Assembly: GCA_043756665.1 (NCBI GenBank)
Contig: JAYUQR010000056.1
Span: 1 to 35,999 of the forward strand
DNA length: 35,999 nucleotides
DNA from: Candidatus Altimarinota bacterium
GTDB lineage: Bacteria > Patescibacteriota > Gracilibacteria > BD1-5 > UBA2023
Direction: 5' to 3'
The position numbers and the translations under genes were made by a program. Shown here one piece after another: positions 1 through 35,999 of this stretch. The notes beneath the pieces are model-generated. The model did no database searches. It saw only the letters and a program-made list of their open reading frames with translations, and had not been told where the DNA came from. Numbering within the stretch: the first letter of the stretch is position 1; every line of letters starts with the position of its first letter.

Positions 1-6
1 TGGCAT

Positions 7-63
7 AGAAAAAGTGGGTTAAGTACTGATATTTTTAGCGAATTCAGTATACCCACTTTTTCT
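7..63. terminator. Long hairpin, probable bidirectional terminator for a gene left of the window
   Basis: agaaaaagtgggt (7-19) is the exact reverse complement of acccactttttct (51-63). Inner stem tactga/tcagta (24-29/44-49). A-run before, T-run after. Confidence 0.45.
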
Positions 64-139
64 ATTTTAGTGAAAGGATGTGTTTGGACTTAACAAGTAA
101 GTACTCCCGTACCATTTATTATTATTTCATTTTTACAAT

Positions 140-1890: not shown

Positions 1891-3597
1891 ATGAATACTT
1901 CACCGAATACATCACTTCTCCATGAGATTCTCGAAGCACTCCTTACGGATCCAACTGTTATAACGAAAGAAGGTTTTCAAAAACTCAAGAATGCTATCCT
2001 CGGAAAGTATGGAGAAAAAGAAACGCCGACCTCGATAGAACTGATTGCTCATTATGCTGCATGAATCTCATCTGGCACATACCGAGAAGATTCTCGTGTG
2101 AGGAAAGTTCTCAGAAAAAGACCGATTCGTTCTCTTTCCGGAGTTTCAGTGATCTCCCTCCTCACCAAGTTTTGGGGATGTCCAGGTAAGTGTGTCTATT
2201 GTCCCACATATGACAATCTCCCAAAAAGCTATATCACGGATGAACCAGCAGTACAGCGAGCGGAGATGAATGCATTCGACCCATTTCGTCAGGTGCAGAA
2301 TCGACTCCAATCACTCTCGATGACGGGGAATGCGATCGCAAAATGTGATGTACGTGTTATCTGAGGAACATGGAGCGTTTATCCGAGAGAGTATCAGGAG
2401 GATTTTATTCGGAGTATTTATGATGCGCATACGAGTTTCAGGAGTTCGCAGTTCGCAGTTCGCAGTTCGCAGTCAGAACAAGGGAATCCATTTTTTGGTT
2501 CTGAAGCCCAAGATTCCAATATTCCAACATTTGAACAGTCACCCACTCTCGATAAGGCAAAAAAACGAAATGAAACTGCCTCGAGTCGAGTTATTGGTAT
2601 TGCCATCGAGACCCGTCCCGACTGGATTGATGAGGAAGAGTTGATATGCATACGCAACTATGGAGTCACTCGAGTGGAGATAGGGTATCAGACGACGGAT
2701 GATCGAATTAACGAGATCAATAAACGAGGTCATGGAAATCAGGAATCTATACGTGCAACCCGTCTCTTGAAAGATGCTGGTTTCAAGGTCGTAGCTCATA
2801 TGATGCCTGGACTCGTCTGATCGACGCCAGAAATCGATAGAGCATCGATGGCAGAAGTATTCGATAATCCTGACTATCGTCCTGATGAGATGAAGATCTA
2901 TCCTATGGTGGTGACGCCTCACTCAGAACTCGAGGATATCTGGCGTCGATGAGAATTCATCCCTTATGATGATGCCACGCTCATTCCCCTCATGTCTGAT
3001 CTCCAGGGTATGCTTCCTGAGTATCTGAGGCTCAATCGTATGTATCGAGATATCCCAGCGAGTCAGATCCTCGCAGGGTCAAAACTCGCGAACCTCAGAC
3101 AGATTACGGAGGTGAATATGCGTGCTCGCGGGATCGTCCGTCGAGATATCTCAGCCCGAGAGATCCGGGCTCGTGACAATGATCCTCATACGGCAATCCT
3201 CGATATCACTTTCTATGAGGCAAGTGGTGGTCATGAATACTTCCTCCAGTATATTGATCCGATTGATCGGACCATCTTTGGGTTGGCACGACTGCGTATT
3301 CCTTCACAGTATTTCACAGGAGAGACACATTTTATACCAGTATTGGATCGGGCTGCCATCATCCGTGAGCTCCATGTCTTCGGTGATCAGCTCTCTATCG
3401 GTGTTCCGTCAGATGGATCAGGACAACATATGGGATTCGGACGGCGGATGATGGCGGAAATGGAGCGGATCGTTCGGGAAAAGTATGAACAAATCGAGTG
3501 TATCGCAGTTATAGCAGGAGTCGGCGCAAAAGAATACTACAAAAAACTTGGATATACGGATGCAGATAGCTATATGATAAAAAAGTTGACAAATTAA
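1891..3597 (+). CDS. elp3: Elp3-family radical-SAM / GNAT enzyme (tRNA wobble-uridine cm5U-type modification)
   Basis: Frame 1 joins track ORFs 1858-2064, 2098-2364 and 2992-3597 through four UGA codons. Radical-SAM cluster motif GCPGKCVYCP; I(G)GTW..YPREYQ; IETRPDWI; EIGYQTTDD; C-terminal GNAT part QHMGFGRRMM...LGY. 568 aa. ATG 1891 preferred over the TTG at 1858. Confidence 0.9.
2443..2473 (+). repeat. Heptanucleotide tandem repeat (agttcgc) x4 plus a partial copy, inside elp3
   Basis: agttcgc at 2443, 2450, 2457 and 2464, then agt(c). Encodes SSQFAVRSSQS in a variable linker of Elp3. Confidence 0.9.
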
Positions 3598-3746
3598 AAA
3601 ATTATATTTTTACTTGACTCAATAGATATACATGCACTGGTAGTGTTAGTAGTATACATACACACATAAAAAAGTCTCTATATTTCTCCTTTTTTTTTCT
3701 GTAATACCTGTATAATTCCCACGTCTTTATTTTTTTCTTCCCCCTT

Positions 3747-7801: not shown

Positions 7802-8806
7802 ATGAAAAAAAATATTGATATTCTCCTCTCCGTCATCGATAACTATGGTGATATGGGATTCGCATGTGAGCTCCTGATCGGACTCGAGAGAATATATCCA
7901 TGAGTATTTATATACCATATCTGGACGGATGATATCTGAGTCGTTACGAGTTTTTTCGAGAAAAATAGCGATTCACTCCCTGAGTATTATGTGAATATGT
8001 TAGAAAAATTTGGTGAGGATAATCAATCATCATTCTGTATTTCACTCTTTCATGGCTTTATTCCAGAGAGACGATTTTTCCAGAATCCTTCGATGATCCT
8101 CAGAATAGACTATCTCTCTCTCGATCGTGTATGGATGAGGAATCATGAAAAAGAGCATATCGGTTCCACAGAAGGCAGGAAAATTATCGAAATTATACCT
8201 TCGCCATTTCCACAGTGATGAGGAATATTCCCTTGTCCGATATGAAAATATACACGCCAGGATATCGCAGACATGTTTTCCTTGGATTGTTCGAAAGAAT
8301 GGATTTCGATTTTTTCCTATCCTCAGACACTGAGTGCAAGCATAGATTTTACGATTATTCCACACGATCGAGAAATACTCCTTCTCGGAGTTCCCACAGA
8401 AATACAGAAACAGATTACATATAAAAATATCCACTATCTTCCCTTTCTCCCACTGGATCTCTTTCATCATGTTCTTGCTCATAGTCTCTGGAGTATCATC
8501 CGTGGTGAACTCAGTTGGATGAATATGGTGGCTCTTGAGAAGCCATTTTTCTGGGATATGTACAAGTCTCTCGGTGGGTTTCCAGAAGAGCAGAGTCGAC
8601 AGTTTCTCGAACTATTTGAGGTATCATCGAATTATCGAGGCATCCATAATCATATCAATACGGGATTCCCGTGAAAATTCTCTCTTCACGAGTGTGAATA
8701 TTTGCTCATGTCCTGAAAATGAAATATGAGCCTGAAAAAAAAGAAACCGAAGGATCTCATCCATGAAGTAAAAAAATTTATTGACAGTTTCTATTTTTCC
8801 CTATAA
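7802..8806 (+). CDS. earP: EarP, EF-P arginine rhamnosyltransferase (DUF2331 family)
   Basis: MKKNIDILLSVIDNYGDMGFACELL matches the EarP N-terminal signature (DIFCxVVDNYGDIGVxWRLA). RIDYLSLDRVW matches LEYLSAEEW; ISIFSYP matches ISLFAYE. HYLPFLPLDLFHHVL...IIRGELSWMNMVALEKPFFWDMY matches LPF..QDDYDRLLW..D.NFVRGEDSF.RA.WA.RP..WHIY. Joins track ORFs 7991-8218 and 8273-8674 through about 8 UGA codons. TAA 8804-8806. Confidence 0.8.
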
Positions 8807-8850: not shown

Positions 8851-8927
8851 GCCAATGTAGCTCAGCTGGTTAGAGCGCGGGACTCATAAGCCCGAGGTCG
8901 GCGGTTCAAGCCCGCCCATTGGCACCA
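8851..8927 (+). tRNA. tRNA with anticodon CAU (elongator Met or lysidine-type Ile2), CCA encoded
   Basis: GCCAATG-TA-GCTC-AGCTGGTTA-GAGC-G-CGGGA-CTCATAA-GCCCG-AGGTC-GGCGG-TTCAAGC-CCGCC-CATTGGC-A-CCA. The G1:C72 pair excludes an initiator. Confidence 0.85.
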
Positions 8928-8933
8928 TCATAT

Positions 8934-9008
8934 CGCGGAGTAGAGCAGTGGTAGCTCGCAAGGCTCATAACCTTGAGGTCGTATGTTCGATTCATACCTC
9001 CGCAACCA
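8934..9008 (+). tRNA. Initiator tRNA-fMet (CAU), CCA encoded
   Basis: CGCGGAG...CAAGG-CTCATAA-CCTTG...CTCCGCA-A-CCA. The C1 x A72 mismatch at the top of the acceptor stem is the bacterial initiator hallmark. Only two G:C pairs close the anticodon loop instead of the usual three. Confidence 0.75.
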
Positions 9009-30687: not shown

Positions 30688-30780
30688 GGTGGGTTACTCA
30701 AGTGGCTGAAGAGGCGGGTTTGCTAAACCTGTAGGGTGCCGCAAGGTGCCGCGAGGGTTCGAATCCCTCATCCACCGCCA
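30688..30780 (+). tRNA. tRNA-Ser, anticodon GCU, CCA encoded
   Basis: GGTGGGT-TA-CTCAAGTGGCTGAAGAG-G-CGGGT-TTGCTAA-ACCTG-(long variable arm TAGGGTGCCGCAAGGTGCCGC)-GAGGG-TTCGAAT-CCCTC-ATCCACC-G-CCA. Confidence 0.9.
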
Positions 30781-30893
30781 TTGTTTCAATGTACAATTTA
30801 CAAATAATAAATTACAATTTCCGGATTGTTCACTATACATTGTTCACTGTTCATTGTTTTTGGGGGTATAGCTCAGTGGTTAGAGCAGTCGGC

Positions 30894-31256
30894 TTAAGGA
30901 TTTTTTTCTAAATCAAGCTCAGGATAATGTTCTTCTGCATGACAATTATGACAAAGGAGTATGCAGGATCTTAACTCATTTTCAATACGTTCGAATGTTC
31001 TATTCGAAAGGGATCGAACATCGAGTTTGAATTCTTTTTTCTGAGGGTCAGTGTGATGAAATGATAATGCACCAAGATTCTTCTTGTATCTGCATCTCAT
31101 GCATCAACCTCAGAAACGCTCAATAAGTTCACGTTTTCTTTTGAATCCTCGAGCTTTCTGAGATGGGTAACTCTGATGTTTCTTGTTTTTGCAGATGATC
31201 GAACAGAATAATTTCTGTTTTCCTGAAAGGATATTTCAGCATATGATACATTTCAT
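30894..31256 (-). CDS. HNH homing endonuclease encoded antisense within the intron
   Basis: ATG 31256: MKCIIC(G)NILSGKQKLFCSIICKNKK (zinc ribbon)...(G)G(G)CMRCRYKK...LSFHHTDPQKKEFKLD...ENELRSCILLCHNCHAEEH (HNH motif). 120 aa, three in-frame UGA. The TAA stop (complement of 30894-30896) abuts the 5' splice site. Confidence 0.8.
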
Positions 31257-31487
31257 AACTGAAAATATAGTAAGATATGAAAAATTTGCAAGGGCGGTTA
31301 TGAGAGTAATCTCATAATGTTTATCTGTCAAATTCGGGGAAACCTTCATCTCAATCGAGATATGGCAATCCCGAGCCAAGCCTGTAATAAGGAAGGTGTA
31401 GAGACTAGATGGCAGACATCCTGAAAAGGATGAAGGGATAGTCCAGACTCCAAACTCGAAAGGGGTAGTGAAAACTATAGCAGTACG
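30895..31487 (+). mobile_element. Group I intron (IC3-like, Azoarcus/cyanobacterial tRNA-intron type) in the anticodon loop, 593 nt
   Basis: The 5' exon ends in U and the intron ends in G (31487). The core at 31320-31487 contains gtcaaattcggggaaacc, tatggcaatcccgagccaagcc and gaaggtgtagagactagatggca. As I recall them, these match the conserved J3/4-P4, P6 and J6/7-P7 segments of the Azoarcus tRNA-Ile intron. P2-like hairpin ttatgaga-gtaa-tctcataa and P8-like hairpin atcct-gaaa-aggat. I could not identify P1/IGS. Confidence 0.75.
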
Positions 31488-33141
31488 CATAACCGATTGG
31501 TCCCTGGTTCAAGTCCAGGTACCCCCACCATAATGTAAATCATTCAGTAAGAGCATCAGTTTTAATGTAACTGATGCTCTTTTCTGTTAGTTCCAACGTA
31601 AAAATATACCCATGTTGTAATTTATTGAACTCTATAAACGGCAAAAACCAATCATGAAGATTGGCTTGCAGTTTCTGATCCATTAATATCCAGTTCCAAC
31701 CAAGAGAACGAAAAATCATTTTCTTGGTTTCTAGATCTCAATCTCTGAATCTTTCGGAAGCATATTTTGAGAAATTGATAGTATCTATGATGAGTTCAGT
31801 CCAGTCTATATTTTCTTTTTCTATCTCAGTTTTTCGTATTTGTAGTAATTCTATTTCTTTTTCTAGCTCTAGCCTCATTCTATCATATTCTTTATAGTTA
31901 CTCTCGAACTCTCAAGCGAGCCTCATGTGTAAGAGTCTCGTTTTTTTCTTTTCAGCAGATTCAAGAGTATTTGTAATGTTTGTTTTTATACTTTCCCTGC
32001 CAGTAGATTCCTCACTATATTTTCGCTTGAGTACTTCTTTTGACCAGTTGAAGAACTCTGGAATGATTTCAATCTCACTTAGAATTTCTTCTATTTGTTT
32101 TTCAACTCATTCGTTTGAGACAACTTTCCTTTGATCGCAATGAAATTCAGTTGTATTTTTTTTGTGTGTGCAGTGGTAATATGTGTATTCTTTCTCTTTT
32201 CCAGTAGAACGTATGTTCTTGTACTTCTTGACTGCTGTAACCATACAACCACAGCATCAGCAACGAATATTCCCAGTATAGGGGAATGTTAATATAGAAG
32301 GCCTTTCTCTATATACCTTATTTGGAGATCCACTTGTATGAGAGATGAGCTTTTGAGCTTTCTCGAATTCTTCCCATGTAATCATAGGCTCGTGAGATCA
32401 CTTGATTGTATTTTTATTATACTTCATGTATCCTGTATAGAAAGGATTCCTGAACATTGCATATAGTGTAGATATTGCGAGTTCTCTACGAGCCTTATAT
32501 TTTACATTTACTGTGGAGTATCACCACTCCGTATTGGCAGTATGTGCTATCTGAGAAGGAGCATAACATCATGTGAGTAGCATATCCCACATCTTTCTTA
32601 CCAACTGGAACTTTTCTGGATCAGAAGCAATAGTTCTTGTAATAGGGTCATTAATATAGCCTTGAGGCGCCTTTGCAGGAAAGTGACCTTTCTCAATCTT
32701 ACTTTTGAGTCATCTTCTTACATTTTTAGAGAGATCAAGAATATACTGATTTGCCATACCTGTTTCAACGCTGAAGATGAGTCATGAATCTTCGGGATGA
32801 TACACTCTATCGCTTGTTATAATTCGCTTTATTTTGTGCCTCTGAAGCATATATTGAACACTTCCTGCATCTACTGGGTTACGAGTAAGTCTATCAAGCT
32901 TCCAACAGAGAATACCATCAATGCTTCATTCTTCTATTTCAGCACACATTTCATAGAATGCTTTCCTTACTCACGGAGCCTTTGCTGATTTTTCTTCAGT
33001 GTAGATTTTCACAATTTCTATGCCATCTTCGACTGCTTTCCTTTTCCAGTATGTAATCTGGTCATCAATTGACTGAACTTGTCTATCTTCTCTTTCAGAA
33101 GACTTCCGTGCATAAAGCACAAATCGGGTAGCTTTTTCCAT
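31405..33141 (-). CDS. Large serine recombinase (resolvase domain, recombinase domain, zinc ribbon, coiled coil)
   Basis: ATG 33141: MEKATRFVLYARKSSEREDRQVQSIDDQ (catalytic Ser region)...IDGILCWKLDRLTRN...GHFPAKAPQGY...AMFRNPFYTGYM...GNIRC(G)CCGCMV...YYHCTHKK...FHC, then a coiled coil. I verified every codon. There are 11 internal UGA codons. A 12th UGA at 31540-31542 is the only stop-like codon before the tRNA. The first in-frame TAA/TAG is TAG 31405-31407, so the code-25 ORF is 578 aa, or 533 aa if it ends at that UGA. Confidence 0.8.
31549..31584 (+). terminator. Rho-independent terminator of the split tRNA
   Basis: aagagcatcagtt (31549-31561) / aactgatgctctt (31569-31581) form a 13-bp perfect stem, followed by tttt. 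Confidence 0.65.
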
Positions 33142-33201
33142 AATAAAATTGTTAAGTAATGTAAAGTAATATATAAGGTACTATTGATAAGTACATAATA
33201 T

Positions 33202-35340
33202 TTATGTAAGTCAAACATCAGCTATCGGGCTTATATGCATATTTCTTCAAATATTTTCTATAGTGATGAGTCCAGCATTAGCGAGAGTTGGCTCTATTTC
33301 TTGTCTCCAAAGAGCATCCGACATTGGTCTACCATAAACTTCACTATGTTTTTGTATAATTTTCTTGCGGGTGACTCATATTGCATCCTCTGGTCAGAAA
33401 TAATCTTCCCTTTGCTTGTTGTACTCTATGTAGGCAGGAACAAGTATCTCCATATACAATCGCATTGTATATGGAGATACATTGAACTTTTGACCAGGAG
33501 AGATCTTCTGCCATAGGCTCCATGCTTCCTCAATATCGGTATCTTCGGCATATAAAGTTGCTCATGTTCTTTTTCGATGAGGGAGATTAAGGAGAGCGAA
33601 AGCTCTAATGAATCACATGAATCGGTCTATGTCTCGTTGGTCCCGAGGTATACAGCCCTGTTTTCATTTTCACTCCAGAAAGAATCGATCTACTTTCTCA
33701 GGATCGAGAAAGTCTATATCGTCTATATTGGCATCTTTTATATGCTGAATTCTTTCTTTGAGAATATTTCTTTCAGGATCATTTATAATTGATTCTTTTA
33801 GCTTTTTATCTGCACCACTAAGTCTAATTTTATGCTGGACAGTATCATAGATCTTCTCGCTATGAGTTTCGGGAGAGATAAGTAGAAAACGAGTTGCTTC
33901 TTGTTCATCGAGTTGTGTCGATGCTGTACAGAATACAGCTACAGGATATCCATAAATAATAATGTTTTTTGTTTGGTTTCATCATTGACCACTTTTATCT
34001 GTTATTTTACAGGTCAGAATTGGTTTATCATGTGAGAGAAGAGGCCTTAATTTTCAAAGAAGTTCTGTTCTAGGCTGATCAATAAATATGATAATTTTTC
34101 TATCGAGATGTATGTGTTTCTCATTTTTCTCTTTATCATACTCTCCATTTTCATGGAAGAACGCACTTTGAGATACATAAAGTAATTCCATAAGACTATC
34201 TTTTGGGAAAAGTTGAGCTATCTGTAAGGGTATGTATGATTTACCAGATGAAGACGGAGCATTTAGCATTATATTTATCTGTGAGTCCCTCGTAAATGCT
34301 GTAAGCATAGCCAGAAATACGATTAATTTATTCGTGTCATCATGTTTAATAGTAAGTGAAAGTATTCTTATAATGTCTACACTCGTCATCGGAGCAAATT
34401 TTGATGAATCTGTACCCCGTATGAGCTCACTATATAAAGTCATCATTTCATCGCTAGTTCCACCATTTTTTATAAAGTCAGACACATCTTTCCCCATTTC
34501 TAGTGGAAGTGAGATTCTATATATCTCTTTTTCAGGAAAACGAGCAATAAGTCGGTCAATAAGTCTAGTGGCTCATTTATTTCAGGCATCATCATTATCA
34601 AAACAGATATATATTTTAGAGAGCGATGCAAGACTCTCTAACCATTCTTCTTTGAATGTTCCTACTCATCCCGTAGAGCTTATTCACATAAGTCCCTCCC
34701 GAGAAAGTATCATCTGATCGAATTCTCACTCGCAGATCACTATATAATCATCATTATTTTGCATGTTTTCTCATCCATAGAGCATCGTTTCGTTTCAAGA
34801 TGGGTAAAATATATACTTATTTCCTTCCGATCAGTAGGGGTCACGTCTGAGCTTAAAAAATTGAAATACTCATTTTATATCTCGAATTGGTATTGTTATC
34901 CAGTTTGATCCATAGAAAGAGCCATATCCGATTTGCCTTTCTTTTATGAGTTCTTCCGTAATACCTCGTTCATTCAAGTATTCACGGATGTTTGGTGGTA
35001 ATGACTTCTGATACTTTGAGATATCCTTTTCTGTTAGAGTTATCTTCTTTTTTTGGACTTCTGGATTTCTTGGACTCTTCGGATTTGTGTATCATTCAAG
35101 TGGATATTCTCAAGGATCATCTCAAAAATGTTTGAGAAGCGTGATCCAGTTTCATTGTGCGAGACATTTTTTGCACTGGTAGAGTCCTGTAGACTCTTCG
35201 ATATAAAGATGAGCTTCCTTGCCTCGACTGTCTTTGTCGCATTCATTGAATACGCAATGTGCTGCAATTTCTTTGCCAGTCTTATAGTGAAAGATTCATT
35301 TTTTATCCAAATAAGTGGGGATCGTTGTAGTAGGTAACAT
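33202..35340 (-). CDS. Primase-helicase: CHC2 zinc finger, TOPRIM primase and P-loop NTPase fusion
   Basis: ATG 35340, TAA 33202-33204, 712 aa, every codon checked, 25 in-frame UGA. Zinc finger AAHCVFNECDKDS...LYQCKKCLAQ(G)NW. TOPRIM IVICE(G)EFDQMIL...YICFDNDDA(G)NK(G)A, with UGA on the invariant Gly of EGxxD and DxDxAG. Walker A MLNAPSSSGKSY and Walker B-like KIIIFIDQP. Contains track ORF 34054-34497. Track ORFs 35040-35267 and 35053-35337 are out-of-frame or antisense shadows. Confidence 0.85.
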
Positions 35341-35357
35341 AAAAGTAGTAATTAAAT

Positions 35358-35498
35358 TTATAAAATGGAACGAGAGACAGTTTCCATCAGTAGAATGAGT
35401 TTAACGGCTTGTTCATGAGCATCTTCAGTACTGATTTCGACTTGAAATAAGCTCTTGTAAATGCTTTGATATTCGCGGATGTCTTGCTCGGTTAACAT
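35358..35498 (-). CDS. Small protein (46 aa), hypothetical, upstream of the primase-helicase
   Basis: ATG 35498: MLTEQDIREYQSIYKSLFQVEISTEDAHEQAVKLILLMETVSRSIL. TAA is the complement of 35358-35360. Same strand as the primase gene and 17 nt upstream of it. Confidence 0.35.
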   Translation of the reverse strand: MLTEQDIREYQSIYKSLFQVEISTEDAHEQAVKLILLMETVSRSIL

Positions 35499-35514
35499 AC
35501 TAGTAGAAACAAAA

Positions 35515-35551
35515 ATAGGTACCAACAACTTAGCTAAGTGTTGATACCTAT
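35515..35551. repeat. 37-nt imperfect palindrome (operator / recombination-site candidate)
   Basis: The arm ataggtaccaac (35515-35526) pairs with gttgatacctat (35540-35551) with one mismatch. Between them is the perfect 12-nt palindrome acttagctaagt (35528-35539). The element lies 17 nt upstream of the small ORF start. Confidence 0.6.
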
Positions 35552-35625
35552 TATATTCTGTCTTGGTTTTTACGACACCTCCCGAATGACTCCTTTTTGT
35601 CGCTAAATTATCGCTATTGATGTTT

Positions 35626-35647
35626 TATATATCCAATATATATCCAA
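35626..35647 (+). repeat. Exact 11-nt tandem direct repeat tatatatccaa x2 (iteron-like)
   Basis: Copies at 35626-35636 and 35637-35647, followed by ccaa-ctcatc-ttgg and an A/T tract. Confidence 0.6.
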
Positions 35648-35999
35648 CTCATCTTGGTTTGATATATTTTTTTATTTCTGGGTTTAGTTTATTCCGTATT
35701 TTCTGACAATATCTTCAAGAAGTCTCATTAGACCTTCATTTTGATATATATGTTTTGATATTCTCATAGTCGCATATCACTCATCTATTTTCATATAAAA
35801 TCTTCAAGAGCCTATACTGAGTGGTTGCTATTGATAAAGCATCCTCAATCACAATTCAATCAAAATAAATTTTTCATCAAAGGGTATCAAAAAAGAATCA
35901 TGATGGTATTCGAGGTGTTGTCCGAATAGAATCTTCTTTTTTCTCATTTCGGTTGAGTTTATTTTTCTCTTCAAGAAGACTTCAAATAGATGATTCGGT

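Follow-up and report, generated by a model that had tools for sequence, protein, structure and literature searches.

What is the DNA that begins where an intron-bearing tRNA(CAU) gene ends, and how did it come to lie there? The window, which is the whole stretch of DNA that was analyzed, is the entire 35,999-bp contig C56 of the host genome G000 (1.36 Mb, 160 contigs, 86% complete). Directly past 31530, the last base of the 3′ exon of the split tRNA, the gene content switches, as an earlier sequence-only reading had noticed, to a serine recombinase, a primase/NTPase fusion, and small open reading frames (ORFs), all on the minus strand. This segment, at least 4.47 kb long, is very probably the tRNA-proximal (attL) side of a mobile element of the integrative, plasmid-like kind in a Gracilibacteria-type genome that uses genetic code 25. 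Two points go beyond the earlier reading: the ORF of the recombinase runs across the attachment site, and the element is one of a very large family that extends across the bacteria of the candidate phyla radiation (CPR). The two large genes are:

31405-33141, minus strand: large serine recombinase (LSR), the integrase; 578 aa, 12 in-frame TGA codons
33202-35340, minus strand: primase/NTPase fusion, the replication protein; 712 aa, 25 in-frame TGA codons

The case for an insertion rests on the comparison of occupied and empty sites among related genomes, and involves the following features:

30688-30780: tRNA-Ser(GCU), the nearest host tRNA before the split tRNA(CAU)
30862..30894, plus strand: 5′ exon of the target tRNA(CAU), tRNA positions 1-33; host DNA that matches the intronless tRNA of the congener G003 up to position 33
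30895..31487, plus strand: group I intron in the anticodon loop, 593 nt, with boundaries set by the G003 alignment; context, outside the element
31488..31530, plus strand: 3′ exon of tRNA(CAU), 43/43 identical to the G003 tRNA
31525-31530, plus strand: attL core CCACCA, the last bases of the tRNA, where the element starts

The congener G003 has the same flanking genes (the neighbor protein is 95% identical), the same tRNA-Ser, and a tRNA(CAU) that has neither the intron nor the element. The window can be aligned with G003 through both exons, and the similarity stops exactly past CCACCA. A conceivable objection is that the segment consists of vertically inherited host genes at a conserved locus, as the same tRNA holds related genes (LSR 63%, primase 66% identical) between syntenic flanks in G008, a member of another genus of the same family, or that the junction is an artefact of assembly or binning. 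However, the site is empty in G030, a congener of G008, whose sequence diverges at the same base as the occupied G008, and the terminator behind the attR of G008 is homologous to that behind the G030 tRNA. Instead of conserved synteny lacking an attachment repeat, which the sequence-only reading had named as the sign of ordinary host genes, the G008 element has two defined junctions, and both hosts have empty congeners. Full-length primase homologs are patchily distributed (5 of the 60 searched relatives have one, and four congeners have none), and the elements of G008 and G026, which represent different genera, encode proteins that are 91-98% identical. GC content shifts at the junction (about 0.42 in host genes vs. 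0.35 in the element; 0.42 vs. 0.29 at third codon positions). Code 25 is used on either side of it, and the tRNA is continuous there. These observations make host genes or an artefact highly improbable; on comparative grounds, the sequence from 31531 to the contig end is a true insertion exactly at the CCA end of the tRNA(CAU) gene.

The recombinase of the element is a typical multidomain protein with matches to the Pfam families Resolvase (PF00239; residues 8-152, E = 2.6e-19; YARKSS motif present), Recombinase (PF07508; residues 175-267), and Zn_ribbon_recom (PF13408; residues 288-352), the latter two above their cut-offs, and to a PHROG integrase (E = 1e-71). The top NCBIfam matches are XisF and CcrC/B/A, all far under their cut-offs (54-65 bits for CcrA/B/C vs. 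700-900), which identifies the protein as a generic LSR outside the XisF and Ccr subfamilies. Judging from its full-length ORF, which is free of TAA and TAG and retains the RxS catalytic motif, the enzyme looks intact.

Only residues 1-539 of the LSR (31525-33141) are native to the element; residues 540-578 are the antisense of the tRNA exon and then of the intron. The same is true of every integrated copy, in that the LSR ORF continues antisense into the tRNA, and in the six copies whose target gene itself encodes the CCA end, CCACCA gives Trp-Trp (WW) on the complementary strand, in the same frame. Among the best 120 LSR homologs, 71 end in residues that resemble the antisense of a T-arm and at least nine in a native tail. 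A homolog with 63% identity (P0126) reads into an intron-bearing copy of the tRNA, and one with 91% identity into an intronless copy.

The window itself offers only attL; attP, attB, and attR were read from relatives. At the far end of the L062 element, a copy of CCACCA is followed by the displaced terminator of the tRNA, and the antisense strand encodes a short peptide in frame with the WW. Homologous peptides (WW, then EEVRTAL, then IPYIPKL) are present at the far ends of the elements of G008, G017, and L050, and the DNA motif GCRGTTCTNACTTC accompanies these far-end tails. In G008, the tail is located exactly where the homology to the empty site of G030 resumes. The elements so delimited measure 17.6 kb in G008, 16 kb in G017, and 9.4 kb in L062. 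The circular contig L074 (9,497 bp, 30-nt terminal overlap) encodes an LSR of 562 aa that includes the native tail; residues 1-539 of the window's LSR share 67% identity with it, up to the WW, where the alignment stops. Another contig (L063) contains one attP-type and one attR-type junction. The core common to attP, attB, attL, and attR of the relatives is CCACCAT (7-10 nt), without a long direct repeat, and tRNA-length repeats are absent from the relatives. In the relatives, the attachment site is inside the LSR gene, whose conserved last ~23 residues are supplied by the far end of the integrated element and rejoin the gene only in the circle. In the window's LSR, codons antisense to the tRNA and its intron stand in place of this tail.

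Several other interpretations of the junctions were rejected. The TGA located four codons before the junction is not an ancestral stop codon, because relatives using the standard code (code 11) also read into the tRNA, and because in the circle the tail can only be translated by read-through. Direct tRNA repeats do not qualify as far ends, since most relatives lack them, and a 12-mer in L046 lies ~150 nt outside the tail segment. Contig L044 shows no terminal overlap, and its join is out of frame, which speaks against a circular form.

It is conceivable, as a tentative proposal, that the exchange of the tail upon integration acts as a built-in switch of the direction or level of recombination, either without a directionality factor or beside one. 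The same proposal holds that a standard-code host would make a tail-less enzyme, and that the boundary between code 11 and code 25 has apparently been crossed once in the sampled sequences. The small ORF at 35358-35528 and the small ORFs of cluster c2 in the relatives are candidates for a recombination directionality factor.

The element side of attL comprises one additional feature:

31531..31600, plus strand: element-side attL arm with a hairpin and U-run (31549-31581), followed by the GTTCCAAC motif

The hairpin is found at the same place in five related elements, with changes on both sides in two of its pairs, and hairpin and U-run are located on the tRNA strand directly past the CCA end in each element from Gracilibacteria. 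They presumably provide the tRNA with a replacement terminator.

The commitment of the element to code-25 hosts, which had been claimed from its codon usage, is borne out by comparison with relatives. A tRNA with anticodon UCA (1692-1770) and in-frame TGA codons across the whole window fit translation table 25, and the host is predicted to decode TGA as glycine. The TGA codons that are dense in the element's reading frames have counterparts in relatives: in an alignment of six recoded primases with eleven code-11 homologs, TGA stands opposite Gly in 496 of 946 cells, compared with a background of 5.7%. The six recoded primases form a single clade (100/100 support) among the 17 in the tree, and the other 11 stem from standard-code genomes. 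TGA accounts for 53% of the Gly codons of the element but only for 28% of those of host genes. The TGA four codons before the junction occurs in 4/4 tRNA-adjacent copies analyzed from Gracilibacteria; a standard-code host would therefore truncate the LSR ahead of the crossover point.

The replication protein appears to combine two modules. Residues ~200-295 show Toprim matches (PF13155, E = 6e-11) and contain the motifs CEGEFD and DNDD, DNA-primase families of PHROG match residues 14-305, and structures of DnaG match residues 148-297 (e.g., 2au3, E = 6e-8). An HC-x4-C ... C-x2-C arrangement at residues 28-59 is matched by no zinc-finger model but lies within the PHROG primase alignment, which starts at residue 14. 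By these matches, the N-terminal ~295 residues are of the DnaG primase type. The ORF is full-length and free of TAA and TAG, and both the acidic motifs of Toprim and the Walker A motif are kept.

Residues 296-712 have no sequence match to a Pfam family or solved structure. An AlphaFold (AF2) model built from 35 homologs (pLDDT 81.7, pTM 0.84) retrieved the AAA+ domains of MCM proteins in Foldseek (E about 1e-9) and aligned with MCM in VIA at Z = 20.1 (root-mean-square deviation 4.0, 258 residues on M. kandleri MCM; 258-289 aligned). VIA scores for other proteins were lower (BchI, 15.1; RavA, 14.6; BrxL, 12.8; ComM, 12.5; SCCmec helicase Cch, 10.7), and the last ~90 residues matched winged-helix domains with Z = 8-9. 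A Walker A motif (GKS, near residue 360) and a TRF motif are invariant across the 35 homologs; the latter is reminiscent of the SRF arginine finger of MCM, an assignment we infer by analogy. The model thus predicts for residues ~296-712 the fold of an MCM-like AAA+ ATPase with a C-terminal winged helix. The canonical N-terminal domain of MCM (oligonucleotide-binding fold and zinc collar) is not present, and a DnaG-type primase occupies the N-terminal half, which is why the protein is named an MCM-like helicase fused to a bacterial-type primase, and not an MCM. The coding region of this protein also contains an inverted repeat (33444-33480) whose 17-nt arms match perfectly around a 3-nt loop; it is not found in the same codons of seven related elements and is hence specific to this copy.

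The sequence behind the primase gene, which had been described as an AT-rich non-coding region, turned out to be mostly coding:

35358-35528, minus strand: conserved small ORF of 56 aa, which immediately precedes the primase gene throughout the family
35514..35552: 14-nt inverted repeat (I21) with 93% complementarity, which extends from the start of the small ORF into the intergenic region
35625-35999, minus strand: C-terminal 124 codons of a winged-helix gene, 9 in-frame TGA codons, cut by the contig end

The intergenic stretch is only about 100 nt long (35529-35624), and the inverted repeat is a candidate operator or terminator. The 56-aa ORF has no matches in Pfam, PHROG, or NCBIfam but clusters (BLASTP) with ORFs of 46-72 aa at the same position in six other loci. 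The winged-helix fragment has a weak match to Trans_reg_C (E = 2.8e-4, under the Pfam cut-off). A search among longer proteins found no homologs, but tblastn detected one in the related element L064, where a protein of 463 aa in the equivalent position shares 49% identity with the fragment along 117 aa of its C-terminus. The complete protein would thus have about 460 aa, and ~1 kb of the gene is missing from the contig.

The right boundary of the element had been placed beyond the window, and since the window is the whole contig, it indeed lies outside. Contig ends overlapping the right end of C56 were not found at k = 15-127. The sequence that follows the tRNA in G003 has no counterpart in G000; its more distal flank matches contig C66 from 4596 onward. 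C66 was rejected as the far flank because C66:1-4595 is unlike related elements and contains no tail segment. In the genus g5 (L019 8120-8867, L029 4521-9554), tRNA(CAU) is located just upstream of the 16S rRNA gene, which places the element between the tRNA and the rRNA operon; a search for the right flank by this synteny gave no result, as the 16S rRNA gene is not assembled in G000. In G030, 3.3 kb of unrelated sequence separates tRNA(CAU) from the 16S rRNA gene.

Two other contigs of the same genome contain traces of the family. Contig C82 (L065) has an attR-like junction at 2200-3695, made up of an arm encoding the tail, CCACCA, a terminator, and two host genes (PgeF-like and MiaB-like), with a drop in GC from 0.47 to about 0.32 into genes for a low-molecular-weight phosphatase/ArsC-like protein and an aldo-keto reductase. 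It was not accepted as the far end, because the MiaB-like/PgeF-like flank adjoins tRNA-Phe in G008, and tRNA-Phe is unassembled in G000; since the flank belongs to the tRNA-Phe locus, the junction most likely represents a second element or a relic. Contig C16 (L066) carries two tandem degenerate tail segments at about 7886-8039, ~4.7 kb downstream of tRNA-Asn and in a recombinase-free vicinity, which look like relics of earlier insertions. No other Rfam families were detected in the window's element or in its relatives from Gracilibacteria, and a search for CRISPR-spacer-like matches elsewhere in G000 returned only two chance 18-mers.

Homologs of both large proteins are numerous (at least 1301 of the primase at E <= 1e-10 and at least 3616 of the LSR at E <= 1e-40). 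Those of the primase stem mostly from assemblies of Patescibacteria/CPR, where they are annotated merely as "toprim domain-containing". Among the family loci compared (L039-L055, L062-L064), contigs of Gracilibacteria, Saccharibacteria, Parcubacteria, and others share the gene order DUF5659, ~60-aa ORF, primase-helicase, one or two small ORFs, LSR, antisense tRNA. The target tRNAs comprise Phe, Gln, Ala, Ser, His, and Met. The cargo is variable and includes type III restriction-modification pairs in at least eight loci; that of G008 includes a type IIG enzyme, an HKD-SNF2 helicase, and a Y-family polymerase, and other loci carry uncharacterized genes. With thousands of homologs, mostly at tRNA genes, the family appears to be one of the commonest elements of CPR bacteria, and no published description of it was found within the literature searched.

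Two related loci differ in structure from the window. At L076 (4159-8808), an LSR that is 63% identical to that of the window is located at an intron-bearing tRNA(CAU), with a tail that reads into a homologous intron; in place of the primase-helicase, this satellite-like module variant has a GP3_package (small-terminase-like) gene and a ParB-methylase. At L062 (12036-12461, reverse), a unit of ~240 nt, which by eye encodes a small protein of the GIY-YIG-like type, comes after tRNA(CAU), and a second copy of the tRNA's 3′ half separates it from the LSR element; the unit seems to be a separate mini-insertion at the same tRNA.

The sequence-only reading had described the segment as the core of an integrating plasmid or phage-like element. 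The first part agrees with the circular form of a close relative (9.5 kb), whereas a phage-like nature fits less well, as three relatives of 9.4-17.6 kb contain no capsid, terminase, or conjugation gene. Scans with Pfam, PHROGs, and PADLOC found no genes for capsid, portal, terminase, or tail proteins in the window, G008 (17.6 kb), G017 (16 kb), or L062 (9.4 kb), although some ORFs were not annotated, and no domains of relaxases, coupling proteins, or type IV secretion systems were present among the proteins scanned. The lack of virion genes also bears on the possibility that the element is a phage satellite (similar to the phage-inducible chromosomal islands) or the end of a defective prophage that is mobilized by a helper and is not autonomous and plasmid-like. 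Such a lifestyle would agree with the LSR relative P0126, which is accompanied at its intron-bearing tRNA(CAU) by GP3_package and ParB-methylase instead of a primase, and with the matches of the window's primase to phage primase families, and the many small ORFs without annotation leave room for a packaging signal or a hijacking gene. However, given the absence of virion genes from all four sequences and the merely distant and partial matches in a collection of viral contigs, a phage satellite is an unlikely explanation.

The element might also be a decaying, immobile remnant that has become fixed beside the tRNA. The contig ends within the element, the small genes between primase and LSR are missing, and G000 contains the apparent relics described above (the tails on C16 near tRNA-Asn and the attR-like junction of C82, whose partner LSR is unassembled). 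By contrast, both large ORFs are full-length, uninterrupted by TAA or TAG, and equipped with their catalytic motifs (RxS, the acidic residues of Toprim, Walker A), and the alignment of the LSR with that of the circular relative spans its whole length up to the core. Moreover, a 91%-identical LSR exists elsewhere, and the congeners lack the element. A remnant is therefore quite improbable.

A mobile, plasmid-like element, the preferred interpretation, has to be weighed against several observations. Its far junction was not found among the contigs of G000. It does not have the small genes between primase and LSR that most relatives carry, a feature shared with L062, the locus with the closest architecture. 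The Walker B position of the helicase is DQ and not DE, the replication gene of the circular relative L074 is a different one, and neither an iteron-like origin nor convincing tandem repeats were seen in the window. Excision, replication, and helicase activity are all functions that we infer.

If the element is mobile, the LSR would recombine a CCACCA-centered attP with the tRNA's 3′ end. Integration would displace the tRNA's own terminator, for which the element would bring a new one, and the excised circle would replicate by means of the primase-helicase. The region beyond the contig end should contain the missing part of the winged-helix gene, the tail of the LSR, and cargo, which in most relatives includes restriction-modification genes; by analogy with relatives, the total size of the element would be about 9-18 kb.

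The target tRNA is itself unusual. Its 3′ half is nearly identical to that of the tRNA-Ile(GAU) of G000 (contig C73, 4449-4525), and two further CAU tRNAs in the window (8851-8927 and 8934-9008) resemble elongator and initiator Met tRNAs, which suggests that the split gene is probably tRNA-Ile2. The notion of three layers of selfish DNA at this locus is reasonable; the intron is confirmed by Rfam (RF00028, 78.9 bits at 31277-31468), whereas the ORF assigned to a homing endonuclease is without a Pfam match:

about 30894-31250, antisense: HNH-like (homing-endonuclease) ORF inside the intron; no Pfam family matched

On a 1.9-kb metagenome contig (P0125), an LSR that is 91% identical to that of the window reads antisense through an intronless tRNA(CAU), which indicates that the intron is variable among close relatives of this host/element pair. 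At the other end of the window (1-99), the first 77-99 nt recur at the ends of contigs C14, C61, C103, C112, C125, and C134 of the same genome, as would be expected of a dispersed repeat or a hub of the assembly graph.

CPR bacteria have tiny genomes, and to our knowledge, few of their mobile elements have been described. Although truncated, the element of the window adds a code-25 branch to a widespread family for which the searched literature offered no published description, here at an intron-bearing target tRNA. It extends the serine integrases to the 3′ ends of tRNAs, with short, defined attachment sites on universally conserved targets that are of interest for genome engineering, and presents a case of a serine integrase gene that spans its own attachment site. 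In its replication protein, an MCM-like helicase would be coupled to a primase of bacterial type. How a change of the genetic code limits horizontal transfer is a question for which the code-25 clade provides a natural test. Lastly, a group I intron and an element reside in one tRNA gene, 40 nt apart, and the existence of close relatives with and without the intron opens the order of the two invasions to study.

Among known systems, the code-25 prophages of Gracilibacteria and Absconditabacteria, which were called from portal, tail, terminase, or integrase genes (PMC10746230), resemble the element in being integrated, dense in in-frame TGA, and committed to the code of their host. They differ in their portal, tail, and terminase genes, which were unseen in the element family of the window (PMC10746230). 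The 'suicidal' integrases of SSV-type archaeal viruses and elements likewise have an attachment site within the integrase ORF, so that integration partitions the gene; they are, however, tyrosine recombinases split into two large parts (PMC7253208), whereas here ~23 C-terminal residues of a serine recombinase are exchanged.

The staphylococcal cassette chromosomes (SCC/SCCmec) share with the element the use of LSRs (CcrA/B/C), an MCM-like helicase (Cch), a primase function, cargo, and insertion into a conserved housekeeping gene at its 3′ end. In NCBIfam, CcrB/C rank among the top matches of the LSR, yet with 64 bits against a cut-off of 900. The target of SCC/SCCmec is rlmH instead of a tRNA, whereas the present element has a single recombinase and a DnaG-type primase fused to the helicase, whose predicted fold is nearer to archaeal/eukaryotic MCM (Z = 20) than to Cch (Z = 10.7). 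The ssrA islands of Dehalococcoides carry a CcrB-like serine integrase (DsiB) beside attL at the 3′ end of the tmRNA gene (PMC3146451). They are similar in the location of the LSR by attL at the 3′ end of a tRNA-like gene, in tandem accretion, and in their variable cargo, but differ in their insertion in the T-loop, a 20-bp direct repeat, and a second small recombinase (DsiA); a replication module and a split integrase ORF are not reported for them (PMC3146451).

The tycheposons of Prochlorococcus and other marine bacteria are also compact, cargo-carrying elements at the 3′ ends of tRNAs, with an integrase beside the tRNA and a primase/helicase module, and form islands by accretion (bioRxiv 10.1101/2020.12.28.424599). 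They differ in their recombinases, since 910 of the 937 integrase-carrying elements surveyed (including cryptic ones) have tyrosine recombinases and 27 an LSR, and in the partial-tRNA direct repeats that flank them (bioRxiv 10.1101/2020.12.28.424599). The family of the window is set apart by its LSR, a core of 7-10 nt, an attP inside its own ORF, the DnaG/MCM-like fusion, its CPR hosts, and, in the present case, code 25. In functional terms, the tycheposon is the closest description of the element.

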